A stretch of DNA of 64,000 nucleotides. Origin: a virus. Its lineage: Duplodnaviria > Caudoviricetes. The position numbers and the translations under genes were made by a program. This document shows, one piece after another, positions 32,710 to 56,640 of the stretch. The notes below the pieces were generated by a model. That model saw nothing but the letters and a program-made list of their open reading frames with translations. It did no database searches and was not told the DNA's origin. How positions within the stretch are numbered: the first letter of the stretch is position 1; each line of letters starts with the position of its first letter. The stretch covers positions 84 to 64,083 of the IMG/VR virus record IMGVR_UViG_3300035698_013326; one strand, 5' to 3'.

Positions 32710-33202
32710 CAGTTTCCTCCGGAGGGTCTACCCATCGGAAAAATCCAATGCTGTAGCAGACCGTTTCTGTTGTATTGGTTAGCTTGCCATGATCTGTGTA
32801 TTGATAATGGTGATGATTGAATGCATTACTGATTTGAGCTTTCCATCCATCCACCTCAAAGGGTCGCACGGCCTTCTTCACAATGTCAAGACTCTCATTT
32901 TCATCTTTGTTGAGATATAATTTGAGAGGTTTTTTGATTGGGACGGTGAGATTTTTGTACTCATATAGCATGCCCACCAGATCTATGTTTCTACCCAATC
33001 GTCCCTCAGCAGGGGTGTGGGAATGGGAGAAGACGGCACGTGTAAAATCATGGTGAGTGAGTTTTAGCTTAGCTATCAAGCACCCAGAGTCTTTGTCACC
33101 GATTTCAATTTGTACGTAGTCTTCTTCCATATTGGATTGGACTTCTGAGATGGATAGTTGTGCTTTGAATCGCATCTCAGTGTTTTTCTTAGTCTTCCTC
33201 AT
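32696..33202 (-). CDS. Hypothetical protein
   Basis: 168 aa ORF with AAAGG RBS, overlapping the next gene. Confidence 0.65.
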   Translation of the reverse strand: MRKTKKNTEMRFKAQLSISEVQSNMEEDYVQIEIGDKDSGCLIAKLKLTHHDFTRAVFSHSHTPAEGRLGRNIDLVGMLYEYKNLTVPIKKPLKLYLNKDENESLDIVKKAVRPFEVDGWKAQISNAFNHHHYQYTDHGKLTNTTETVCYSIGFFRWVDPPEETDALL

Positions 33203-33365
33203 AGTGACGCCTTTCTCGTTTCACACGAGGCTTTTCGGGTGTGAAGGCAGCAGGACACTGTGATTCGTTCCTACGTTTCCGGTTTAGATTCATCTCACGA
33301 CATTCCCCATCGCAGGGCTTGTTATTGCATGCACACATTAGCTTATCCATGATACACTCCTACAT

Positions 33366-33411
33366 AAAAATGAAAAGAAGGGAGCCAGAGCGGAAATCTC
33401 CGGTAGCTCCC
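33366..33411 (-). terminator. Intrinsic terminator
   Basis: GGGAGC...GCTCCC hairpin followed by TTCTTTTCATTTTT on the minus strand. Confidence 0.7.
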
Positions 33412-33506
33412 ACTTACGCCGGTTTCGTCTCAGCGTTGATGCATAAGCGGCTCCTTTCAATAGATTCGGTTTGGCACTAACACCAATACCAACTTCGTAC
33501 ATCCAA

Positions 33507-33584
33507 AGTATACAGCGGATTTGGAGAAAACAAAATGAGAATTTTTCCATTTTCATTTTTATCTGAACAAATGTGGTGTATACT
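33507..33584. promoter_or_regulatory. Divergent promoter pair (TATACT at 33507-33512 minus; 33579-33584 plus)
   Basis: AT-rich strand-switch region; both -10 boxes have an upstream TG and a CATTT element. Confidence 0.6.
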
Positions 33585-33612
33585 CTGTAATAGAAGGACA
33601 ATGGAACTTTAA

Positions 33613-33813
33613 TTGGTTGGTTTGGAGGAGTGGATGCAAGGATTAGAGATCATCAATGATTTTACAACTTTGTTGCATCAATATGGTCCGGAATCCGAAA
33701 AGGTGGAGTCGTTTTTGAAGCAATACGACCATATTCCGTCATTTGTTGCACGAGCACGAACGTTGCGAAGTGTTTTTCTAGAAAAAGAGCGTGTGACAAG
33801 GGCACACAGTTGA
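33613..33813 (+). CDS. Small hypothetical protein (start uncertain)
   Basis: ORF between promoter and tRNA array; GGAGG before ATG 33634. Confidence 0.5.
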   Translation: MVGLEEWMQGLEIINDFTTLLHQYGPESEKVESFLKQYDHIPSFVARARTLRSVFLEKERVTRAHS

Positions 33814-33818
33814 TAATG

Positions 33819-33892
33819 GGGGGTGTAGCTCAGCTGGCTAGAGCACCGGATTCTTAATCCGTAGGTCGAAGGTTCGAATCCTTCTACCCCTA
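33819..33892 (+). tRNA. tRNA-Lys(CTT)
   Basis: Cloverleaf; loop TTCTTAA; GTTCGAATC T-arm. Confidence 0.9.
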
Positions 33893-34034
33893 CTAGAGTT
33901 AGCCTTCTCTAACGCGGAAAAAGGCAGGCACAGGATGATTCCCGTCTTGGTTTGATTGCCGCCCAATGGTGTGGAGCGCCGTTTCTTGTCAAACAGAAAT
34001 GGAATAGGTTTCTACTTTGGGAAGGGAATAATAT

Positions 34035-34107
34035 GGCCCTGTCGTCTAGTGGTTTAGGATGCTGGATTCTCGATCCAGTTACGCCAGTTCGAATCTGGCC
34101 AGGGCTA
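34035..34107 (+). tRNA. tRNA-Glu(CTC)
   Basis: CTGGA-TTCTCGA-TCCAG anticodon arm. Confidence 0.9.
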
Positions 34108-34215
34108 TTTGGTAGCAGGTGAGATCCCGCCTGTGTCTGATTACGGCTTTGGAGTTGTCCGCAACCCCCTGTCAGACGGGGACGATTCGTTGACACTCTG
34201 AGGAAGGGATCTTGG

Positions 34216-34296
34216 GGCCTTGTGGTGGAATGGCAGACACGCGAGTTTCAAACACTCGTGCCTTCGGGCGTGAAGGTTCAAGTCCTTCCGAGGCTA
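34216..34296 (+). tRNA. tRNA-Leu(CAA)
   Basis: CGAGT-TTCAAAC-ACTCG; long variable arm. Confidence 0.88.
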
Positions 34297-34445
34297 TTAA
34301 GGCCGGTTCGATTCCGGCTCGTTGGTAGAGGTCAGGAGAGACGGGAGTTGGGTTCGATTCCCAATGATTGTCTTGTCGGAAGATAACGCCGACAAGTAAC
34401 TCTGGCGAGACAAAGACCCGCAGGCGTCAGCGTTAGGCGTGCGGA

Positions 34446-34517
34446 GCCCCGGTGGTCTAGTGGATATGATCTTGGACTTTCGATCCGAGGACATCAGTTC
34501 GATTCTGATTCGGGGTA
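34446..34517 (+). tRNA. tRNA-Glu(TTC)
   Basis: TTGGA-CTTTCGA-TCCGA. Confidence 0.88.
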
Positions 34518-34524
34518 TTGAAGA

Positions 34525-34598
34525 CGCACTGTGGCTCAAAGGGTTAGAGCATCGGATTGTCGATCCGAAGGTTGGGAGTTCGAGCCTCCCCAGTGTGA
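34525..34598 (+). tRNA. tRNA-Asp(GTC)
   Basis: TCGGA-TTGTCGA-TCCGA. Confidence 0.9.
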
Positions 34599-34601
34599 TT
34601 A

Positions 34602-34674
34602 CACCGACTAACTCAATTGGTAGAGTACCTGTCCTACACACAGGTTGTTCTTGGTTCAAGTCCAAGGTTGGTGA
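34602..34674 (+). tRNA. tRNA-Val(TAC), C33 variant
   Basis: CCTGT-CCTACAC-ACAGG. Confidence 0.85.
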
Positions 34675-34695
34675 TTTGGTCAAATGACCATTATT

Positions 34696-34767
34696 AGGAC
34701 TATGGTGAAATGGATATCATACCTGCCTACGGAGTGGGAGTTGAGGGTTCGAGTCCTTCTGGTTCTA
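34696..34767 (+). tRNA. tRNA-Arg(ACG)
   Basis: CCTGC-CTACGGA-GTGGG. Confidence 0.85.
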
Positions 34768-34769
34768 TT

Positions 34770-34830
34770 GGCTTACGTGAACTTGGTAGCGGGCAGACAT
34801 TCCTCGCTGGTTCGATTCCAGCCGTAAGCC
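34770..34830 (+). ncRNA. Miniature tRNA-like RNA lacking a normal anticodon arm
   Basis: GGCTTACG/CGTAAGCC stem enclosing a D-like loop and a perfect T-arm GCTGG-TTCGATT-CCAGC. Confidence 0.6.
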
Positions 34831-34834
34831 TTAC

Positions 34835-34907
34835 GGGCGTGTAGCTCAATTGGGAGAGCGCCTGCCTTGCACGCAGGAGGTTGTGGGTTCAATTCCCATC
34901 GTGTCCA
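34835..34907 (+). tRNA. tRNA-Ala(TGC)
   Basis: CCTGC-CTTGCAC-GCAGG; G3:U70. Confidence 0.92.
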
Positions 34908-34908
34908 T

Positions 34909-34936
34909 TTGCATCTTTGGAAATTTGGTGTATACT
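34909..34936 (+). promoter_or_regulatory. Promoter TTGCAT-N16-TATACT inside the tRNA array
   Basis: Matches the recurring motif; extended -10 TG. Confidence 0.7.
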
Positions 34937-34944
34937 ATGAGTAA

Positions 34945-35016
34945 GGACGGATAGCTCAGTAGGCAGAGCGCTGGTGTGAAGTACCAGTAGCCTTGGTTCG
35001 ATCCCAAGTTCGTCCA
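34945..35016 (+). tRNA. tRNA-Phe(GAA)
   Basis: CTGGT-GTGAAGT-ACCAG. Confidence 0.85.
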
Positions 35017-35024
35017 TTTGCCCG

Positions 35025-35100
35025 GCTCCAGATAGCATCGTGGTGATGCACTTCGGATGGCGTCCGAAGAGAGACCGTTCAATTCGGACTGGGGGTGCCA
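35025..35100 (+). tRNA. Atypical tRNA, Ala(GGC)-like anticodon, encoded CCA
   Basis: TTCGG-ATGGCGT-CCGAA arm; irregular acceptor and T stems. Confidence 0.55.
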
Positions 35101-35112
35101 CCGGGCATACTT

Positions 35113-35185
35113 GGCCCTGTAGCCCAACGGCAGAGGCAACTGGTTTAGAACCAGTACAGTGAAGGTTCAAATCCTTCTGGGGTCA
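35113..35185 (+). tRNA. tRNA-Leu(TAG), short variable loop
   Basis: ACTGG-TTTAGAA-CCAGT; variable region ACAGT. Confidence 0.85.
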
Positions 35186-35319
35186 TTGTTTCTGGGGACC
35201 GTTACAAATGGTGAAGTTGTAAATCCATGAAGACTGACGAGTCTACGGTTGCTGAAAGGTATCAATCGCTATAGAGTGGGCTGCATGATAGATGCGGCAA
35301 AGCTATCTCAGAAACTTAG

Positions 35320-35405
35320 GTCAGCGTAGATCGTTAAGGAGGCGGCACGGGCTGTAAACCCGTTCCCCGAAAGGGGCCGAGTGGGATCGTTACCCTCAGC
35401 TGGCA
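35320..35405 (+). tRNA. tRNA-Tyr(GTA), non-canonical T-loop
   Basis: ACGGG-CTGTAAA-CCCGT; long variable arm; T-loop ATCGTTA. Confidence 0.8.
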
Positions 35406-35796
35406 TTGGAGGCATACTATGAGGAAATTATGGATGGTTGGGCGACGTGGTTTTGGATTGAAACACGTCAGAAAACGAAAGAAGAAGCTATTCGGGAGTT
35501 TTGGATTGAGGCAAGGTATTGGGCCTTTTCATGTGAACCTGAGGTATGTGAGCATGTGGTGATGTTTAGAGGATGCCGTATGGCCCTTGAGCAGGCTGTG
35601 AAGGGTCAGGAGGTGTATCCTGATGAGAGGATTGCAGAATTATGAAGATTATGAAGCTTGGAAGATTAAAGATCAGCTTTGAGAGATTCTACTCAAGATT
35701 TCAGTATGTGGCATTGAGTATTGGGTACGACACTCGCACCAGATCGCTGCAATTTCAGCTCATCAATTGGGCTTTGGTAATTAAATATGAGGAAAA

Positions 35797-35869
35797 GCAC
35801 CGGTAGCCCAAAGGCAGAGGCATCCGGTTTAAGCCCGGTACAGTGGTGGTTCGAATCCACTTCGGTGTA
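35797..35869 (+). tRNA. tRNA-Leu(TAA), short variable loop
   Basis: CCGG-TTTAAGC-CCGG; variable region ACAGT. Confidence 0.8.
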
Positions 35870-35983
35870 TTGTGTATTGTGGATCGGCGTGAAAATCGCC
35901 AGCATCCCCCAGTGGCCCATTAGAATTGCGGGGACGACCAAAATTAACGGTTGTGTAGAATAAGGTCACGTGATCCACATCGT

Positions 35984-36055
35984 GATGAAGTGGCCGAGAG
36001 GCTAGGCGGCAGATTGCAACTCTGTCCTACGTGGGTTCGAATCCCTCCTTCATCT
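35984..36055 (+). tRNA. tRNA-Cys(GCA)
   Basis: GCAGA-TTGCAAC-TCTGT; U73. Confidence 0.9.
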
Positions 36056-36062
36056 TTGTTAT

Positions 36063-36135
36063 TCCATGGTAGCTCAGTTGGTAGAGCGCCTGACTGTTAA
36101 TCAGGATGTCGGAGGTTCGAGCCCTCCCTGTGGAG
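36063..36135 (+). tRNA. tRNA-Asn(GTT)
   Basis: CCTGA-CTGTTAA-TCAGG. Confidence 0.93.
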
Positions 36136-36137
36136 CT

Positions 36138-36211
36138 GTGGCTGTGGCTCAAATGGATAGAGCAGCTGGCTGTGATCCAGCGGACTACGGGTTCAAGTCC
36201 CGTCAGTCACC
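36138..36211 (+). tRNA. tRNA-His(GTG)
   Basis: GCTGG-CTGTGAT-CCAGC; C73; -1 base is T, not G. Confidence 0.9.
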
Positions 36212-36213
36212 TT

Positions 36214-36301
36214 GGTTCTACTGTCTGGTGAATGCAATGTGTCACATTGTAGGAGGTTCGATTCCTCATGGAGAAATCAGGTTCGAGTCCTGAGTAGAGC
36301 C
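36214..36301 (+). ncRNA. tRNA-like RNA with two T-arms and no anticodon loop
   Basis: GGTTCTAC/GTAGAGCC closing stem; GAGG-TTCGATT-CCTC and TCAGG-TTCGAGT-CCTGA. Confidence 0.55.
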
Positions 36302-36370
36302 TTATGAGATGCCTTTAGATTGCTGGCAATGTGCTGGCATCAAATACATCATTTGGTAGGGAGAATTGGT

Positions 36371-36604
36371 ATGAGAAATAGATTGGTGGCATTTGTGGTG
36401 ATGTTGATGCTTTGTGGATCGGCCTTGGCAGGTGTCAAGATCGATGATGCGAAGTATGGAACATGGTTTGATGTGGGGACGGTTGATGGAACGATCATGG
36501 TCTTCGATGAGGACAAGATCCTCAATGAGAGAACTTTTCATCTCGTTACAGATGGTATTGTGACTCGTCAGGAATCTGTGAAGATAGCTGGTTCGTATCT
36601 ATAA
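36371..36604 (+). CDS. Small secreted protein
   Basis: MRNRLVAFVVMLMLCGSALA signal peptide; GGGAG RBS. Confidence 0.7.
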   Translation: MRNRLVAFVVMLMLCGSALAGVKIDDAKYGTWFDVGTVDGTIMVFDEDKILNERTFHLVTDGIVTRQESVKIAGSYL

Positions 36605-36701
36605 CTTTCGGGGATTGTTATGAGCATCCAACGTATGGATGTATCGCTGATTGGTCAACATCTGGATCGTACTGGACACAGGCTTGTAAGTGAAGTTACT
36701 A

Positions 36702-36736
36702 AGAGAAGGGGCGGCATTGTCGCCCTCTCTGTTTTT
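36702..36736 (+). terminator. Intrinsic terminator
   Basis: AGAGA.GGGCGGCA/TGTCGCCCTCTCT hairpin plus GTTTTT. Confidence 0.75.
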
Positions 36737-36873
36737 GTTGATGGATATGAGAAAACCAAAGAAGAAACCTAGATTGCCGAGATTCAAGGTGCCTCCACCT
36801 ACTTCAGTCCATGAGGACAGGAAGAAGGAAAGGAACAAGAGGCGTTGTCGGCTTCCCATTGAGGATGAATGAC

Positions 36874-37158
36874 ATGACAGTTGAAGAGATGTGTGATATA
36901 TTTGAAGATGAGAGAGAATGTGACAAGGAGGATGAGGAAGTGGGACGATCTGATTTGCGTGCTTTGCTCATGTTGGATCAGTTAGTGAGTGACGAAAAAA
37001 GGATGATAAGTCACGTTATGTGTGGGAGAATCTTTTTAGATGTAGATGTAGAGAAACTTGCATCTGTGATTTCTTATGCGCAGATTGTTACACTGGTTCG
37101 AAGTGGTGTGGATGTGAATGTTGAAGATCCAGGATTGAGTATTTCAGTTGAGTTCTGA
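36874..37158 (+). CDS. Hypothetical protein, paralogue 1
   Basis: MTVEE..D.FE...RSD..A...L..LV...IFLDV...LASVI...Q..TLVR.G, shared with the 37261 gene. Confidence 0.7.
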   Translation: MTVEEMCDIFEDERECDKEDEEVGRSDLRALLMLDQLVSDEKRMISHVMCGRIFLDVDVEKLASVISYAQIVTLVRSGVDVNVEDPGLSISVEF

Positions 37159-37260
37159 AGAGGAGAAATAGATGTTCACTAAGATGGAATGGCTTGTCAT
37201 TGGTTTGGCAACTGGCGTGTTTGTGACATCAGCGATTTGTTCTATTATAGGAGTGTTGTG

Positions 37261-37563
37261 ATGACGGTTGAAGAGTTGATTGATTTGTTTGAGAAGATCA
37301 TAGAGGAGCCGTTTGGGGACAACATGTTCAAAAACATTGAGAATCCTCTGCATCCAAGATCGGACATCTGTGCGTTTATGTTACTCCATGATTTGGTGGG
37401 TGGCACTGGTGACATGGTGGTCGCTGCGGAGCATGATGAGATCTTCCTGGATGTGGAGCTAGGGGATTTGGCTTCGGTCATTACTCCGGATCAGGTTCGT
37501 ACTCTGGTTCGATGTGGACTTCATGTGGATGAGGACCACGAAGGACTGTCAATGTTTGTATAG
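37261..37563 (+). CDS. Hypothetical protein, paralogue 2
   Basis: Same family as the 36874 gene; AGGAG RBS. Confidence 0.75.
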   Translation: MTVEELIDLFEKIIEEPFGDNMFKNIENPLHPRSDICAFMLLHDLVGGTGDMVVAAEHDEIFLDVELGDLASVITPDQVRTLVRCGLHVDEDHEGLSMFV

Positions 37564-37571
37564 GGGGTGAC

Positions 37572-37760
37572 ATGATTACAGATAAAGAACGACTTGATTG
37601 GTTGCAGAAGCAGTTGGACAAGGCATCATATACAGGAAGATGTGTTTTTCGTTGGTCTACAACGGATAGGGGATTTCGTCTCCATGAAACGAGTTTTCCA
37701 GGAGCCGTATCGAGTGTGAGACAAGCGATTGATGATGGAATGAAACAAATGGGGGCATAG
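37572..37760 (+). CDS. Small hypothetical protein
   Basis: TDKERLDWL...R.AID motif; its stop lies inside tRNA-Lys(TTT). Confidence 0.7.
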   Translation: MITDKERLDWLQKQLDKASYTGRCVFRWSTTDRGFRLHETSFPGAVSSVRQAIDDGMKQMGA

Positions 37761-37824
37761 CTCAGATGCGCAGAGCAACCGGCTTTTACCCGGTATGTCG
37801 CAGGTTCGAGTCCTGCTGCCCCCA
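37751..37824 (+). tRNA. tRNA-Lys(TTT)
   Basis: ACCGG-CTTTTAC-CCGGT; D-loop lacks GG. Confidence 0.87.
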
Positions 37825-37827
37825 CAT

Positions 37828-37900
37828 GCTGGTGTAGCTCAATTGGAAGAGCGCTCGCCTTGTAAGCGAGGGGTTGTGGGTTCGACTCCCTCTACCAGCT
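37828..37900 (+). tRNA. tRNA-Thr(TGT)
   Basis: CTCGC-CTTGTAA-GCGAG. Confidence 0.92.
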
Positions 37901-37904
37901 TTGC

Positions 37905-37976
37905 AGACCTGTGGTGTAATTGGTAGCACCTGGGACTCTGAATCCCACAGTCTACGTTCAAGTCGTAGCAGGTCTA
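37905..37976 (+). tRNA. tRNA-Gln(CTG)
   Basis: TGGGA-CTCTGAA-TCCCA. Confidence 0.88.
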
Positions 37977-37981
37977 TTGCT

Positions 37982-38053
37982 GGACCCGTAGTGTAACGGT
38001 CAGCACCGGAGGTTTTGATCCTCCTAGTTTTGGTTCGACTCCAGACGGGTTCA
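37982..38053 (+). tRNA. tRNA-Gln(TTG)
   Basis: GGAGG-TTTTGAT-CCTCC. Confidence 0.88.
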
Positions 38054-38064
38054 TTGGAGATGAG

Positions 38065-38376
38065 ATGACGACAGATAAAAACAGAGTTGATTTCTTGCAG
38101 TCACGTGCGGCTGAGGGTGATTCACCAGAGATCATACCGTGGGGAGACGTGCGAGAACAGATTGATAGAGAGATGGCAGAGGTTGGTTACATGGACTTCC
38201 CGGAGTACTATTGTGATTGTGGCTTTGGGTTTGATTGTCTTGATTGTGAGGGCGCACTTGAGTGCATCCGTTCAACTCCACAGCAGTGGAATCCTGGTGG
38301 TCAGAGTTACTCGTGGACATCGTATTACAGGTGTCCTGAGTGTGGATGTGAAATCGAAATTGAAGAGGGTGACTGA
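38065..38376 (+). CDS. Acidic Zn-ribbon hypothetical protein
   Basis: CLDC and CPEC pairs. Confidence 0.65.
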   Translation: MTTDKNRVDFLQSRAAEGDSPEIIPWGDVREQIDREMAEVGYMDFPEYYCDCGFGFDCLDCEGALECIRSTPQQWNPGGQSYSWTSYYRCPECGCEIEIEEGD

Positions 38377-39299
38377 TGCAGAAGCCAATGTTAGCGAATA
38401 AGTACGAGGACAAGAAGGCTGAGTTTCCTTGCTTTGTCCAACCGAAGTTTGATGGTGTCCGTTGTATGTTTGATGGTGAAGATGCATGGACACGAAACCA
38501 GAAGCCACACAAGCCACATATCGTGGACATGTTGAAGGCACTTCATCCGATTCTCCCTGAGGGGATGGTGTTGGATGGTGAGCTGATTCTTCCCAAGCCG
38601 TGGACATTCCAGAAAACTGTATCGGTGGTCAAGAAGTACTACCCAGCTAAGGTTGATCTTACACCATTGTCACAGGAGATATCTGATAAATGGAAGCGAG
38701 AGATAGCTGACAGGTGGAAAGATGAGGATGATGATGCATTCTACACACATAAACCAGAGGATGATCTATATGTCTCCAGCGACCTGCTGCGATACCATGT
38801 GTACGACTGCTACTTCCCAGATCAGCCTGAGTTGACATTCGCAGGACGTATGGAGCGGGTTCGACGTGCAGTGTGTGAGGATGCAGTAGGGGCTGTGATG
38901 ATCTATGCGCCTAAGGATTTGTGGGAGTGGTTGGATACGTATATTGATCAGGGCTATGAGGGTCTGATTTATCGCAATCCGAAGGGTGTGTACAAGCATG
39001 GTCGGAGTGGGAGAGATCTTCTGAAGCTGAAGAAGTTTTTGGATGATGAGTATCAGATCGTGGGAGCCATTGAGGGTAAGGGTAAGGACAAGGGCACTCC
39101 AATTTGGGTGTGTCGAGTGTCTGCAACAGATGCGAGAACATTCAAGGCTCGTCCTATGGGAACCTACAAGTGGCGCAGAGAAGCGTGGGTAGATCGTCTG
39201 AGTTACTATGGTAGGATGCTCACAGTCAAGTACCAGGAGTTGACCGATGATGGCATTCCGAGATTCCCGATTGGTGTTTCGGTGAGAGACTACGAATAG
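38376..39299 (+). CDS. ATP-dependent DNA ligase
   Basis: KPMLA, QPKFDGVRC, LDGEL, GYEGL..R, LLKLK, TVKYQELT..GIPRFP. Confidence 0.95.
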   Translation: MQKPMLANKYEDKKAEFPCFVQPKFDGVRCMFDGEDAWTRNQKPHKPHIVDMLKALHPILPEGMVLDGELILPKPWTFQKTVSVVKKYYPAKVDLTPLSQEISDKWKREIADRWKDEDDDAFYTHKPEDDLYVSSDLLRYHVYDCYFPDQPELTFAGRMERVRRAVCEDAVGAVMIYAPKDLWEWLDTYIDQGYEGLIYRNPKGVYKHGRSGRDLLKLKKFLDDEYQIVGAIEGKGKDKGTPIWVCRVSATDARTFKARPMGTYKWRREAWVDRLSYYGRMLTVKYQELTDDGIPRFPIGVSVRDYE

Positions 39300-39305
39300 A
39301 GTACT

Positions 39306-39379
39306 GGGATCATAGCTCAAATGGATAGAGCGGCAGCCTCCTAAGCTGCATGTTGAGGGTTCGAGTCCTTCTGGTCCCA
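39306..39379 (+). tRNA. tRNA-Arg(CCT)
   Basis: GCAGC-CTCCTAA-GCTGC. Confidence 0.92.
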
Positions 39380-39398
39380 ATTTTTTGTCATTTCTTTT

Positions 39399-39426
39399 TT
39401 GTACATTCCCAAATATGTTGTATACT
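39399..39426 (+). promoter_or_regulatory. Promoter TTGTAC-N16-TATACT
   Basis: Matches the recurring motif. Confidence 0.65.
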
Positions 39427-39466
39427 ATAAGTGTAGCTATAGTGATCCTTTTTGGAGATGTAGACA

Positions 39467-39868
39467 ATGACCACCAAACAGAAGCGCGTCAGAGTGGAGC
39501 AGATTGAAAAGCAGCTGAATGTGTTGGCTGAGCGACAGGAAGATCTTACAAGAAATCAAAAGAAAATGGTAAAGCTCATCGACAAGCTGTTTAAGAGGCA
39601 TCCCACGGCGGCGAAGCAGCGTGCTATCATTCAGCAGACCATTGACGTTTATGTGGAGCAGGTTGCTACTCAGGTTCAGACTGTCAAGGATGCAGCCTTG
39701 GTGCTCAAAGAGACCGTCAATGGTGAGGATCTTCAGGCTGTCTATTCGCAGGGCAAGACGTCCTGGATTACGGATCAGCTTCTGGGCTATGCCAAAACGC
39801 ACAAGGTTATCTTGGAGATGAAGAAGCAGGGTGATCCTTCCATCTCGATTCGAAAGGTCAAGAAGTGA
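39467..39868 (+). CDS. Coiled-coil hypothetical protein
   Basis: 133 aa with GGAG RBS, first gene after the promoter. Confidence 0.7.
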   Translation: MTTKQKRVRVEQIEKQLNVLAERQEDLTRNQKKMVKLIDKLFKRHPTAAKQRAIIQQTIDVYVEQVATQVQTVKDAALVLKETVNGEDLQAVYSQGKTSWITDQLLGYAKTHKVILEMKKQGDPSISIRKVKK

Positions 39869-40294: not shown

Positions 40295-40623
40295 ACGAGC
40301 TACAAAAGAGCATTGAAGTTGAACGGAAACACATCACTTTCCTTGAGGATACTCCAGTCGCTGCTACGCGCGGCCAGCGTGAGGCGACATTGGCAGTGGC
40401 ACGGTCCAACCTGCTGGTGGCTCAGGCCATTGCAGGACAGACAGATCTCATGGAGCAGATTGCTTATTGCTGTAATAACGATCATTGGGATCAACGCGAG
40501 GAGAATTGACATGTTGCGATTCCTGGAAGGTGTGTTGGTTGGAGCACTTTTATACCATATTGGATGGGATGTGGTTAGTAGTGTAATCGAAACGGGTGTG
40601 ACATTTGCAAAGGGGTTGTTTTG

Positions 40624-41538
40624 ATGCATAAAGCACTGAATGTGATGTGGGATGTGACGCATAAAGTGTGCGACAATGACGAGCACGTGTGGCTTGAGAT
40701 GCGGGGCAGGCATTGGGATTTGGCTGTTGATCAGCTATGCCAATTCAACTTGGAGAGTCCAAGTGGGAATCAGCCATATCCGGAGGGCGTGACAAATCTC
40801 ACGGAGTTCCTGGTGTTTTGTCTGGTGACAAATTCCATCAACTATTGCTATTGGTATGGCTGGGATGAAATTCGCCCCAATGGATCTGGCTACAAAGTTG
40901 TGGCTGATGTGGTTGCGAAGGCGATAAAGGCATGTCCAGGCTATAATGGGGTGGAGGATCTGTTCCCTGCGGTAGTATCGAAGGTGAAGTGGGGTATTCG
41001 ATTCAAGCGACTTCCAATGTTGGAGGAGCGTTTGCGACATTTGGAGGAGCTGATTGGACCGCGCACCAATTTGCGACAAGTACACAATGAGATGCAGACA
41101 GGTGATCCATTGGAAATGACCGTGGCACTGAGCATGCTGGAGGCATACTTTCCAGGCTATGTGTCGGACATTTTTCTGAAGCGAGCGAGTCTGTTCCTCT
41201 TGGAACTGTATCGAAGTCGGAATCTATTTGGCCGTCCGGACCTTTTCATGGGTGAAATAGGTCATTTGCCGGTTCCAATAGACTATCATATTCCGAATGT
41301 ACTTCAGGCGATGGAGTTACTATGTTACGTGCCGACTTTGAAGAGCAAAATACAAGCACATGAACTAATTCCGAAGGGATCGCGGTGGGAAGTGGAGATT
41401 CGGGCTCAATCGGCCCTTGTTTGTCGGAAATTGGCGGCAAAAGTACGATGTTCTGCGGCTGAAGTGGACACATGGCTCTATTTGCAGAGAAAAAAGGTCA
41501 ATACGCCGTTCCACTTGACAATTACAACTGATTATTGA
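40624..41538 (+). CDS. Queuosine salvage protein (DUF2419/Qng1-like)
   Basis: SINYCYW, EER...L, FLKRA.L, L....DYHIP.VL....LL.Y, EVEIRA, D.WL. Confidence 0.8.
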   Translation: MHKALNVMWDVTHKVCDNDEHVWLEMRGRHWDLAVDQLCQFNLESPSGNQPYPEGVTNLTEFLVFCLVTNSINYCYWYGWDEIRPNGSGYKVVADVVAKAIKACPGYNGVEDLFPAVVSKVKWGIRFKRLPMLEERLRHLEELIGPRTNLRQVHNEMQTGDPLEMTVALSMLEAYFPGYVSDIFLKRASLFLLELYRSRNLFGRPDLFMGEIGHLPVPIDYHIPNVLQAMELLCYVPTLKSKIQAHELIPKGSRWEVEIRAQSALVCRKLAAKVRCSAAEVDTWLYLQRKKVNTPFHLTITTDY

Positions 41539-42728: not shown

Positions 42729-43943
42729 ATGAGAGTTGAGAACCACAAAGATATGTTGCCGATCAAGATGTGGCTGGATGATATTGAGCCTTCAGCCATG
42801 CAACAATTGTACAACTTGGCGCAGCTTCCGTTTGCGTATAAGTGGATTGCGGTCATGCCTGACTGCCACATGGGCTATGGCATGCCAATTGGTGGCGTCA
42901 TGGCTACGAAGGGCGTGGTCATCCCGAATGCCGTGGGCGTGGATATTGGGTGCGGGATGTGTGCGGTCAAGACTTCTTTGATGGCACTGGATGGGGATGA
43001 GGGATATGGGAATGAATATGATTCTCATATCTGGAAGAGGATCATGGGTAAGATTCGATCACGTATCCCAATGGGGCGCAACCATCATCAGCAGATGGTC
43101 CCGACGTTTGATATGCCGGATTGGGATGAGGTTTGTAATACAATCGCCGGCGCTAAAAAATCGATAATACATCAGGAATTCAACAATGCTCGTCACCAGC
43201 TGGGAACGTTGGGTGGTGGAAACCATTTCATCGAAATCCAGAAGGGTTCAGATGGGCATATCTGGATCATGTTGCACTCAGGGTCCAGGAACGTGGGCTA
43301 CAAGGTGGCACAGCACTACAACAAGCTGGCTATAGGTTTGAATGAGAAGTGGCAATCTCAGGTTCCGAAGCACGCGCAGTTGGCTTTCCTGCCTCTGGAT
43401 ACTCAGGAAGGACAGGAGTATCTGGTTGAGATGCAGTGGTGTGTTGATTTTGCATTGGCTAATCGTCACCACATGATGGATGAGATTCAGCGCATCTTTC
43501 GTGAGGAGTTTGGTATCGTCACATTCCCTCAGAGGATCAACATAGCCCATAACTATGCAGCGATGGAGCATCACTATGGGCAGAACGTTATGGTCCATCG
43601 GAAAGGCGCAACGAGAGCGTATAAGGGCGAATTGGGTATCATTCCTGGATCTATGGGGACGAAGTCTTACATTGTGGAGGGCCTGGGAAATCCGGAATCC
43701 TTTATGTCGTGTTCGCATGGGGCCGGAAGGCTCATGTCTAGAACGCGAGCGAAAGAGGAGTTGAACCTGGAAGCCGAGCAGGCTGCAATGGATGCGAAGG
43801 GGATCATTCATGGTCTGCGTGGGAGAGCAAATCTGGATGAGGCTCCAGGTGCTTACAAGAACATTGATACTGTGATGAAGAATCAGACAGATCTTGTGAC
43901 TTCCATAGTGGAGTTGGAACCAATAGCAGCAGCAAAAGGTTGA
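42729..43943 (+). CDS. rtcB: RNA-splicing/repair ligase RtcB
   Basis: MPDCH.G.G.PIGG, VGVDIGCG, LGTLGGGNHF.E, HSGSR, HNY, HRKGAT, PGSMG, SHGAGR, DEAP.AYK. Confidence 0.96.
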   Translation: MRVENHKDMLPIKMWLDDIEPSAMQQLYNLAQLPFAYKWIAVMPDCHMGYGMPIGGVMATKGVVIPNAVGVDIGCGMCAVKTSLMALDGDEGYGNEYDSHIWKRIMGKIRSRIPMGRNHHQQMVPTFDMPDWDEVCNTIAGAKKSIIHQEFNNARHQLGTLGGGNHFIEIQKGSDGHIWIMLHSGSRNVGYKVAQHYNKLAIGLNEKWQSQVPKHAQLAFLPLDTQEGQEYLVEMQWCVDFALANRHHMMDEIQRIFREEFGIVTFPQRINIAHNYAAMEHHYGQNVMVHRKGATRAYKGELGIIPGSMGTKSYIVEGLGNPESFMSCSHGAGRLMSRTRAKEELNLEAEQAAMDAKGIIHGLRGRANLDEAPGAYKNIDTVMKNQTDLVTSIVELEPIAAAKG

Positions 43944-55383: not shown

Positions 55384-56640
55384 ATGCTGACAAGTGCAGA
55401 GTCAAACAATGCGATTGTGGTGGAGTTGCAGAACGTGCGGCCACATCCGAATGCTGACAGACTCCAGTTGGCCACTGTGGTTGGTGATCAGGTGGTGGTT
55501 GGTTTGGATGCAAGGGATGGTGACATTGGGGTGTATTTCGACAGCAACCTGCGCCTGTCTCCGGACTTTCTACGGCTCAATAATCTGTACTCAAATTCAG
55601 AGATGAATGTGGATGACAGTGTCAAGGGCTACTTCGGGAAGAATGGAAGAGTTCGGGCGCAGAAGTTCCGTGGTGCGATGTCGAATGGATATATTGCCAC
55701 CATCCAGTCTATTCAGAAATTGGTTGGGGCAGTGAGTGGTATGGGCCTTATGTCGTACCTTAGCGTGGGTGACGAATTTACCCACGTGAATGGTGTGAAT
55801 GTCTGTGAGAAGTATGTGGTTCCTTGCAAGTCTCCTGGTGCCATTGGGTCTCGTACAAAGAGAGTGCGAGTGCCTGTGTCAGAGATGTTCTGGAAGCATT
55901 GGGACACGAAGCAATTGCTTCGAGAGTATCACCGTATTCCGACTGGTGTGGTGTACATTGAGGAGAAGATCCATGGGACATCAGCGCGTACCGGGAATGT
56001 GCTCTTCAAGACACAACGTCCGTGGTGGAAGTTTTGGGCTCCGAAGGAGACTGAGGAGTGGGGAGTGGTTAGTGGGACTCGTCGGGTGGACAGCATTCGA
56101 GCGCACCTTCATGGGGCACGGCAGGAGGTTGAGGATAAGGTTCGTCCTCACCTGAAGAAGGGTGAGCAGATCTATTACGAGATCTTCGGCCACAGTTTGA
56201 GTGGGGCTGAGATCCAGGGTGGTTACTCTTATGGGTGTGCGGGTGGTCAGTATCGTGTGATCTTGTACAGAGTGACAGTGACGACTCCGGATGGTTTCTG
56301 TGTGGATCTATCGAGACCAGCAGTTTACCAGCGTGCGGTGGAATTGGGGTTGGAGATGCCTCCGTTGTTGGGTGTGGGACTCTATCATGCTGAGGAGCAG
56401 GTGGTGTCTGGTTTGGATGTGTGGACGTTCCAGTACAAGAATATGAACTTGGAAGGGTTGAAGGGGCAGGTTAAGGGCAAGTCTACTCTGGATGCAAGTA
56501 CACTCCTGGAGGGTGTGGTGGTCTGGTTCTTGGATGATTATGGCAAATGGAGATGCCTTAAGCTCAAGAGTGATGAGTTTTTGCTCAAGGAAGACAAGCA
56601 ACGTGAGAAGGGCATCGGTGACGTAGAAGATAATCAATAG
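55384..56640 (+). CDS. RNA ligase, DRB0094/Rnl2-like, with N-terminal OB domain
   Basis: PHPNADRL..A.V...VVV, KFRG.MS.G, EEKIHGTS, YYEIFG, EGVV, LKLKS..FL. Confidence 0.88.
   Translation: MLTSAESNNAIVVELQNVRPHPNADRLQLATVVGDQVVVGLDARDGDIGVYFDSNLRLSPDFLRLNNLYSNSEMNVDDSVKGYFGKNGRVRAQKFRGAMSNGYIATIQSIQKLVGAVSGMGLMSYLSVGDEFTHVNGVNVCEKYVVPCKSPGAIGSRTKRVRVPVSEMFWKHWDTKQLLREYHRIPTGVVYIEEKIHGTSARTGNVLFKTQRPWWKFWAPKETEEWGVVSGTRRVDSIRAHLHGARQEVEDKVRPHLKKGEQIYYEIFGHSLSGAEIQGGYSYGCAGGQYRVILYRVTVTTPDGFCVDLSRPAVYQRAVELGLEMPPLLGVGLYHAEEQVVSGLDVWTFQYKNMNLEGLKGQVKGKSTLDASTLLEGVVVWFLDDYGKWRCLKLKSDEFLLKEDKQREKGIGDVEDNQ

Follow-up and report, generated by a model that had tools for sequence, protein, structure and literature searches.

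Background

The tRNA-like domain (TLD) of transfer-messenger RNA (tmRNA) joins its ends in a helix stacked upon a T-arm, carries a loop instead of a D-arm and lacks an anticodon. In mycobacteriophage DS6A it is reported in a phage-borne, message-less 'TLD only' form, and a TLD-like molecule, chargeable or not, is described as inhibiting tmRNA strongly, perhaps by titrating SmpB (PMC4131195). The t-elements of plant mitochondria and haloarchaea, which flank mRNAs or rRNAs, are tRNA top halves without an anticodon arm that RNase P and RNase Z are expected to recognize. The bacterial Y RNA YrlA includes a module that is tRNA-like and has a T-arm; in Mycobacterium smegmatis it is reported to be cut by RNase P and to receive CCA, its ends lying on the anticodon side, within a Ro-binding helix, and a closed hairpin making up the 'acceptor' (PMC4201824). 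Finally, histidyl-tRNA synthetase (HisRS) is reported to charge 13-bp minihelices and 8-bp microhelices bearing G-1:C73 efficiently and independently of an anticodon (PMC9976931); the structural basis of G-1:C73 recognition is treated in PMC4357726, where cited works ascribe the G-1 of Escherichia coli tRNA-His to an unusual RNase P cut. Here we describe an element of 61 nucleotides (nt), hereafter the mini element, at positions 34770-34830 of a 64,000-nt stretch of phage DNA (the window). It extends this known kind, the tRNA top-half mimics. The window covers nearly all of the 64,083-base IMG/VR virus record IMGVR_UViG_3300035698_013326, whose completeness is estimated at about 41%.

A tRNA top half without an anticodon arm

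The mini element lies in an array of 21 tRNA genes, all on the plus strand between 33819 and 39380 (ARAGORN), 19 of which are confirmed by Rfam at 46-68 bits. Its parts are listed in Table 1. All eight base pairs (bp) of the terminal helix, GGCTTACG/CGTAAGCC, are Watson-Crick and, since the T-arm abuts the 3' acceptor strand with no gap, the acceptor and T stems make up a coaxial helix of 13 bp, every pair of which is Watson-Crick. The element thus has the acceptor of a canonical tRNA, set on a 5-bp T stem with a GTTCRANYC-type loop, and lacks the D stem and the anticodon arm: the sequence allows no 5-bp stem with a 7-nt loop in which position 33 is U and position 37 a purine, and neither side of TTGGTAG has a complement in either register. 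Lacking an anticodon arm, as well as a D stem, it is unable to decode. With acceptor and T-arm kept, no anticodon arm and a myovirus genome as its setting, it has the structural features expected of a phage anticodon-less mini-tRNA. The first-pass annotation, made from the letters alone, had proposed an 8-bp perfect stem, a D-loop-like strand, a 3-bp stub and a canonical T-arm without an anticodon arm, all of which we confirmed. It had also given spacers of 2-4 nt; the tight packing holds, and the distances measured are slightly shorter upstream, at 1-2 nt after tRNA-Arg(ACG) (which ends at 34767/34768) and 3-4 nt before tRNA-Ala(UGC).

Table 1. Coordinates of the mini element, its parts and other features of the window
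Feature	Position	Strand	Basis or remark
5' strand of 8-bp terminal (acceptor) helix, GGCTTACG	34770-34777	+	pair probabilities 0.91-1.0
Single-stranded D-loop-like segment, 13 nt, TGAACTTGGTAGC	34778-34790	+	compared with D-arms of array tRNAs
Stub hairpin GGG-CAGACATT-CCT plus C34805, in place of anticodon arm and variable region	34791-34805	+	constrained fold
T-arm GCTGG TTCGATT CCAGC	34806-34822	+	5/5 Watson-Crick, consensus T-loop
3' strand of terminal helix, CGTAAGCC	34823-34830	+	pairs with GGCTTACG
tRNA-Arg(ACG), upstream neighbour	34695-34768	+	ARAGORN; Rfam 47.2 bits
tRNA-Ala(UGC), downstream neighbour	34835-34907	+	ARAGORN; Rfam 68 bits
Odd tRNA-like element	35019-35107 (core 35025-35100)		called only by ARAGORN, as 'tRNA-Ala ggc'
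Odd 89-nt tRNA-like gene, second with the 8/5, D-stem-less, G:C-closed plan	36214-36302	+	2 nt after tRNA-His
ATP-dependent DNA ligase	38376-39299		PHROGs/Pfam
Queuosine-salvage-like protein	40621-41538		PHROGs/Pfam
RtcB	42729-43943		PHROGs/Pfam
Second RNA ligase	55384-56640		PHROGs/Pfam
T4-type baseplate wedge protein, DnaB-like helicase, family-A-like DNA polymerase, DNA methylase	window		PHROGs and Pfam scans

The middle of the element retains recognizable D-loop sequence. The segment TGAACTTGGTAGC has candidates for U8, A14/R15, G18 G19 and A21 with no D stem. If G34770 is numbered -1, the strand reads U8 G9 and then A A C U U G G U A G C, which fits A14 R15 Y Y G18 G19 Y A21 followed by the start of the 3' D-stem strand, as in the array tRNAs, provided that the 5' D-stem strand is missing. 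From this fit, the nucleotides that build the elbow together with the T-loop are present. Beyond the retained D-loop segment a further 9-10 nt are missing, corresponding to most of the anticodon arm and variable region, for a total deficit of 13-14 nt relative to a normal tRNA. Judged by canonical tRNA geometry, two separate losses would be the best fit; a single 13-nt deletion would need a D-loop without A14 and fits worse. In the remaining stub, G34791-34793 pair with C34802, C34803 and T34804 (3 bp, 8-nt loop); an alternative stem of five 'pairs' includes a C.C mismatch and closes a 5-nt loop. The constrained fold chooses the 3-bp stub, at -18.1 kcal/mol. We consider it very probable that 34770-34830 is a genuine tRNA-derived 'top-half' gene, with a 13-bp coaxial helix and a D-loop remnant able to form an elbow.

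Dedicated tRNA models do not recognize the element. It is not called by ARAGORN at default settings, at the 80% threshold or in mitochondrial mode, and the Rfam tRNA model RF00005 (gathering threshold 29 bits) gives no match at E<=10. The best model of the Rfam tRNA clan is that of tRNA-Sec (RF01852), because both have a 13-bp acceptor/T helix. However, the element lacks the UCA anticodon, the 6-bp D stem and the long variable arm of tRNA-Sec, and its alignment passes over the D and anticodon arms of the model. With 21.6 bits for the mini element and 20.8 bits for 36214-36301, where tRNA-Sec is again the best clan match, against a threshold of 47, we rejected a tRNA-Sec identity for both.

A strict scan for a T-arm with an adjacent 7-bp Watson-Crick acceptor in elements of 40-68 nt gave a single match in the window, the mini element itself, and two in total over 200 dinucleotide shuffles of the window. 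The resulting chance expectation, about 0.01 per window, means that the mini element is not a chance structure. An unusual decoding tRNA of armless, mitochondrial style would be the other way to explain the element away. Its 61 nt are long enough for a D-armless tRNA and ARAGORN calls the sister element 36214-36302 a tRNA-Asp, but the lack of any drawable anticodon loop and the silence of ARAGORN, even in its mitochondrial and low-threshold modes, speak against decoding as the shuffles do against chance; both explanations are scarcely credible. Nor is the element an assembly artefact, since it is found unchanged in public-run contigs from two studies (X1, a 412-nt contig with one difference elsewhere; X3, a 310-nt contig with none). 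Within the window, the only antisense target of its unpaired middle is one 9-mer, which is chance level.

Proposed processing and role

Bacterial RNase P and CCA-adding enzymes need no more than an acceptor/T minihelix as substrate, and where a precursor lacks CCA, RNase Z or exonucleases trim it at the discriminator. The mini element offers such a minihelix, spaced as a tRNA would be and flanked on both sides by tRNAs that depend on these enzymes. CCA is encoded neither by the mini element, whose trailer is TTAC (34831-34834), nor by the tRNA genes of the array. In the reading we favour, to which we assign a probability of about one half, the element is a tRNA-derived top half that is excised and CCA-tailed like its neighbours and acts as a non-decoding tRNA mimic.

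The element would be transcribed with the sub-array Glu-Asp-Val-Arg-mini-Ala. RNase P would then cut its 5' end, the 3' trimming enzymes that serve the CCA-less neighbours would cut its 3' end, and addition of CCA to the RNA of about 61 nt would yield a stable RNA of about 64 nt. This RNA would present tRNA-binding proteins with an acceptor end, an elbow and a helix of 13 bp, but would hold nothing usable by the ribosome; it may thus act as a decoy, competing for proteins that bind the acceptor end or the elbow. The first-pass annotation had likewise suggested a decoy or, alternatively, a carrier of amino acids away from the ribosome. The decoy idea is compatible with the heavy investment of this phage in tRNA supply and repair (RtcB, RNA ligase, queuosine-salvage-like protein).

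Orphan status and turnover of the array

A number of results weigh against a functional mimic. The nearest-neighbour model (RNAfold) favours another fold, with a minimum free energy of -20.6 kcal/mol against -18.1 for the tRNA-like form, a z-score of -1.47 and a T-stem probability of 0.04. However, by the same method the T-stem probability falls below 0.5 in 7 of the 19 canonical array tRNAs as well, so that this result does not count against the tRNA-like fold. The 64-kb record, about 41% of the genome, contains no gene for SmpB, Ro, a CCA enzyme or HisRS; SmpB would be supplied by the host.

Furthermore, we found no homologue of the mini element in any collection, which leaves it without evidence from conservation or covariation. 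Its exact 5' 21-mer and 3' 22-mer have no match in IMG/VR. Comparison of the mini region with 50,697 phage records by blastn and megablast returned only single tRNAs or T-arm-sized pieces; with Val-Arg-mini-Ala as the query, no phage record was covered over more than 34%, the best cases being the T-arm of whatever tRNA precedes tRNA-Ala or tRNA-Gly. A covariance model, built from the single sequence, gave two weak generic matches (E values of 0.24 and 0.36) over 16 whole records of RtcB-related phages and nothing alike over 13 further loci. Scanning GTDB genomes with a motif pattern produced four matches, one being a Natronorubrum provirus element identical to that of locus L023 (see below) and three lying in seemingly ordinary sequence, and a ligase search of JGI metagenome contigs gave seven loci, all at 33% identity or less. 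The literature search yielded no description of phage tRNA arrays that contain mini-tRNA genes without an anticodon; supplementary files, which may hold such annotations, were outside its scope.

Relatives of the neighbouring proteins do not extend this picture. RtcB has 15 IMG/VR loci and the 124-aa open reading frame (ORF) six; the 301-aa ORF has one IMG/VR relative at 49%, without a tRNA array, and the 79-aa ORF none in IMG/VR. Distant relatives of neighbouring proteins, at 49-60%, lack this array. The one close IMG/VR relative (ligase 86% and RtcB 76% identical) is a 16-kb contig that starts inside the ligase gene, short of the mini locus. The first-pass annotation would have been abandoned for want of homologues with covariation; none was found, but this sole close relative does not extend as far as the locus. 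It would also have been abandoned had the element proved a simple recent deletion, which we do not favour, two losses being the better fit.

The array itself changes quickly. A relative about 90% identical, seen in X1 and X2, joins tRNA-Phe to tRNA-Leu(UAG) with AA at the join, skipping 35021-35112. This relative is visible on tRNA-Asp, tRNA-Phe and tRNA-Leu; no listed contig spans the mini position, so it allows no inference on the mini element. The skipped segment holds the element 35025-35100, in which G1 and G72 are mismatched, the D stem has 5 bp, the T stem contains one mismatch and a ...TGCCA end is encoded; an outer helix GCCCGG/CCGGGC encloses it (fold z-score -2.45). The 86% relative carries an additional 82-nt tRNA-like gene directly after the ligase (L004 1065-1140, the same as L006; compare window 39295-39480), with an 8-nt C-rich anticodon loop that ARAGORN reads as anticodon 'cccc'. 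The tRNA-Arg that follows the ligase has TCT in this relative versus CCT in the window, the differences in its anticodon stem being compensated. A joined form, '34760 / 25 other letters / 34842', in X1-X4 was not used: these contigs are less than 90% alike and have a different tRNA body, and probably come from another genome.

Two lone T-arms without acceptor partners (34302-34318 and 34348-34364) are located some 450 nt upstream of the mini element, in the 149-nt spacer 34297-34445 that follows tRNA-Leu(CAA). The second is preceded by TTGGTAGA, and an 8-bp hairpin comes next (fold z-score -2.58). The T-arm at 34302-34318 differs from that of the mini element by one compensated pair, C:G to U:A. 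In a looser sense than intended, then, the proposal that the mini element is one of a set stands, through 36214-36302, 35025-35100 and the two lone T-arms of the same array. As a separate observation, the T-loop TTCGATT occurs in four of the six T-arm hairpins lying outside Rfam-confirmed tRNAs (34302, 34348, 34806 and 36252) versus one of the 19 confirmed tRNAs (Glu-UUC).

This quick gain, loss and erosion of array units is the main argument for regarding the mini element as a decaying tRNA: a former array member from which the 5' strand of the D stem and the greater part of the anticodon arm and variable region have gone, maybe still cut by RNase P because the minihelix survives, but functionless and bound to be lost. 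Its orphan status in every collection searched, the varying content of the array between close relatives and the lone T-arms as debris nearby all agree with this, and a deficit of 13-14 nt fits two ordinary deletions. Fragments of tRNA genes are, moreover, reported to be common and often misread in prokaryote genomes (PMC9897764).

Decay does not account as readily for the state of the element. After at least two independent losses, none of its 13 helix pairs is G.U. Such pairs are present in the acceptor stems of 16 of the 19 canonical array tRNAs (26 of 133 pairs, about 20%), in keeping with the strong G+T skew of the strand; at that rate their absence has a probability of about 0.06. The T-loop and the GG are intact, the tRNA-like spacing to both neighbours is exact, and 36214-36302 repeats the odd plan with a different sequence. 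No parent is recognizable within the array: the best global alignment, with 45 of 62 positions identical and many gaps, is to 36214-36302 itself, canonical tRNAs reaching 36-44. On balance we hold decay to be a possible reading, and a serious one, and retain the non-decoding mimic as the favoured interpretation.

Similar elements in other viral contigs

We searched IMG/VR with the pattern TTGGTAGC-N12-22-GGTTCGATTCC, in which the D-loop motif stands too near the T-loop for a normal anticodon arm. It matched 21 loci, of which 20 are distinct. The T stem is complete, at 5 bp, in 15 of the 20 (the pattern itself fixes two of the five pairs), and acceptor-like pairing of 6-7 bp is found at the right place in 10 of the 20, versus 1-4 of 20 for seven shifted decoys. 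One match (L036) is an ordinary tRNA with the motif in its anticodon loop and another (L024) is inside a permuted tmRNA. Scores of these pattern-selected loci under the single-sequence covariance model were not taken as homology, because the loci share two motifs by construction.

Three loci have the layout of the mini element: L031 844-905, L035 2668-2726 and L038 10722-10790, the last also sharing its GTGAA...C before the motif and G after it. Those of L031 and L038 lie between protein genes, and ARAGORN finds no tRNA in these loci. In L035 (2668-3363, minus strand), tRNA-Arg(UCU) and tRNA-Lys(UUU) are interspersed with three tRNA-like elements that have no anticodon, one of which bears a short GAAA-capped hairpin at the place of the anticodon arm. 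A 210-kb phage that also has a tmRNA (L051, 16692-16939) carries a 61-nt anticodon-less mini of alanine type (G3:U70) with an intact D-arm, at most 8 nt after an ORF for a 59-aa Cys-rich basic protein. From these predicted structures it is clear that viral genomes repeatedly contain tRNA top halves lacking an anticodon, both in arrays and between protein genes; homology to the mini element is not implied, as the pattern builds in part of the likeness.

Other observations were made along the way. The loop TTCGATT is found in all three anticodon-less elements of L035, one of which was chosen by a pattern containing that loop, and in neither of its two tRNAs. Haloarchaeal provirus sequences (L023 2994-3050 and 4907-4948; L058, a Natronorubrum sulfidifaciens contig) contain short T-arm elements with TTGGTAGC just upstream. 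At about 6212-6245 of L014, a 193-kb phage contig encoding RtcB, there is a sequence resembling the 3' end of tmRNA, with a T-arm-like hairpin and then ...AGCTCCACCA.

The placement of L038 10722-10790 and L031 844-905, outside tRNA arrays, is what one would expect of a t-element-like processing signal, a tRNA-shaped mark that does no more than guide the cutting of a precursor by RNase P and RNase Z. The mini element shares with t-elements the tRNA top half without an anticodon arm and the expected recognition by both enzymes. Whereas t-elements sit at the ends of mRNAs or rRNAs, it is a tight member of a tRNA array, has no D stem and has a 13-bp helix capped by G:C. Both of its neighbours are canonical tRNAs 1-4 nt away, which already give the same cuts; an extra signal would therefore add nothing, and we think this role very unlikely.

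Comparison with tmRNA and Y RNAs

Among described RNAs, the tRNA-like domain of tmRNA with which the first-pass annotation had compared the element, has the closest plan, particularly in the 'TLD only' form. Acceptor, loop in place of the D-arm, helix at the place of the anticodon stem and T-arm have the same arrangement, and a non-decoding role, with or without charging, is plausible for the mini element too. The likeness stops at the identity pair: there is no G3:U70 in either register, position 3:70 being C:G if the helix is counted as 7 bp and U:A in the G-1 register. Moreover, the helix is of 8 bp instead of 7, and a capped 3-bp stub stands in for helix P2.

One might still imagine a message-less domain of this type binding SmpB and damping host trans-translation. 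The shared plan, the pattern match inside a permuted tmRNA and the inhibition of tmRNA by TLD-like molecules would suit this role. However, in addition to the missing G3:U70 and the absence of an SmpB gene from the record, the Rfam tmRNA model aligns to the T-arm only, at 10 bits against a threshold of 47, and ARAGORN calls no tmRNA. Such a function strikes us as highly improbable.

The likeness to bacterial Y RNAs that had also been proposed did not survive comparison. In Salmonella, YrlA lies in an operon with RtcB. The mini element has in common with YrlA (RF02553) a tRNA-like module with a T-arm, but it ends in an acceptor helix and has no Ro-binding helix. Membership was rejected with 13.2-27.9 bits against a threshold of 69 and no Ro/TROVE gene in the record.

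A candidate histidine-type end and a sister element

The outermost pair of the mini element, G34770:C34830, closes the helix at the -1:73 position. G34770 may be read either as the G-1 of a histidine-type end, with C34830 as the equivalent of C73, or as the first position of a helix that contains an additional inner pair; no further pair can form between T34769 and T34831. Pairing at -1:73 is possible in 6 of the 19 canonical array tRNAs and is then always U:A; within the array, only the mini element and 36214-36302 have G:C there. With G:C in the place of G-1:C73, histidine is therefore the most likely amino acid if the mini RNA is charged at all, and the mini element is a candidate HisRS substrate. 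Histidine minihelix and microhelix substrates were reportedly described by Francklyn and Schimmel in 1990. These substrates and the end of tRNA-His share with the mini element the 13-bp acceptor/T helix closed by G:C at -1:73; the known substrates are laboratory constructs or full tRNAs, whereas the mini element is a natural gene. The array's own tRNA-His(GUG) (36138-36211, also given as 36137-36211) has T at -1 and keeps C73; as encoded, it is without the usual bacterial G-1 identity nucleotide.

The sister element has an 8-bp helix, GGTTCTAC/GTAGAGCC, followed by 'TG' and, where a D-arm would be, by a UGGU-containing strand of 12 nt; it is flanked by TT on the 5' side and TTA on the 3' side; its sequence differs from that of the mini element. 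Unlike the latter, it has an anticodon-like hairpin with GUC (Asp) and, besides a normal T-arm, an extra T-arm-like hairpin (GGAGG TTCGATT CCTCA) at the position of the variable arm. The ARAGORN call of tRNA-Asp places the anticodon at position 28, and the Rfam tRNA model misses the gene. If functional, a histidine-type end on an Asp anticodon would amount to a mis-charging design.

Carried to its full extent, the histidine reading would have the phage make a histidine-accepting non-decoding mimic, a natural 13-bp G-1:C73 minihelix with an elbow and with 36214-36302 as its sister, which soaks up readers of the acceptor end or elbow (defence toxins that modify the acceptor end, HisRS, the CCA enzyme) and represents an unrecognized, structurally diverse class of anticodon-less mimics in large phages. 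We regard this elaborate version as unlikely.

The phage and its tRNA array

The T4-type baseplate wedge protein and the other genes identified (Table 1) point to a large tailed phage, an uncultured myophage, whose host is probably a bacterium. DNA nearly identical to the window is present in six public runs labelled salt lake metagenome, each holding part of the stretch; no RNA run is among them.

The array also contains two pairs of paralogous small ORFs (36811-37158 and 37189-37563; 37572-37760 and 38065-38376), and its 124-aa protein has relatives at 47-52% identity in six IMG/VR contigs. A motif, TTTG..N..TGTATACTATRAGT, is repeated at 34908-34942 (after tRNA-Ala), 35405-35426 (before the 79-aa ORF) and 39398-39432 (after tRNA-Arg(CCU)); it may be a phage promoter splitting the array into sub-operons. 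Predicted promoters in 33000-39600 do not exceed those in shuffled sequence (7 versus 8.0 +/- 2.6). Terminator-like sites in the same region number 9 versus 4.5 +/- 2.0 in shuffles and are mostly tRNA arms.

Implications

If the mini element is a relic in decay, it matters for annotation all the same, as an illustration of the extent to which a tRNA may erode and yet remain a perfect processing substrate, and of a kind of gene that standard tRNA finders do not see. The tRNA arrays of phages are currently interpreted as counter-measures to host defences that cut tRNAs. Should the favoured reading be true, a gene reduced to acceptor, T-arm and elbow within such an array would add RNA decoys to the spare tRNAs of this picture. 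The minihelix substrates long used to define the 'operational RNA code' would also gain a natural counterpart in this gene, whose G:C cap makes the histidine-type reading concretely testable.

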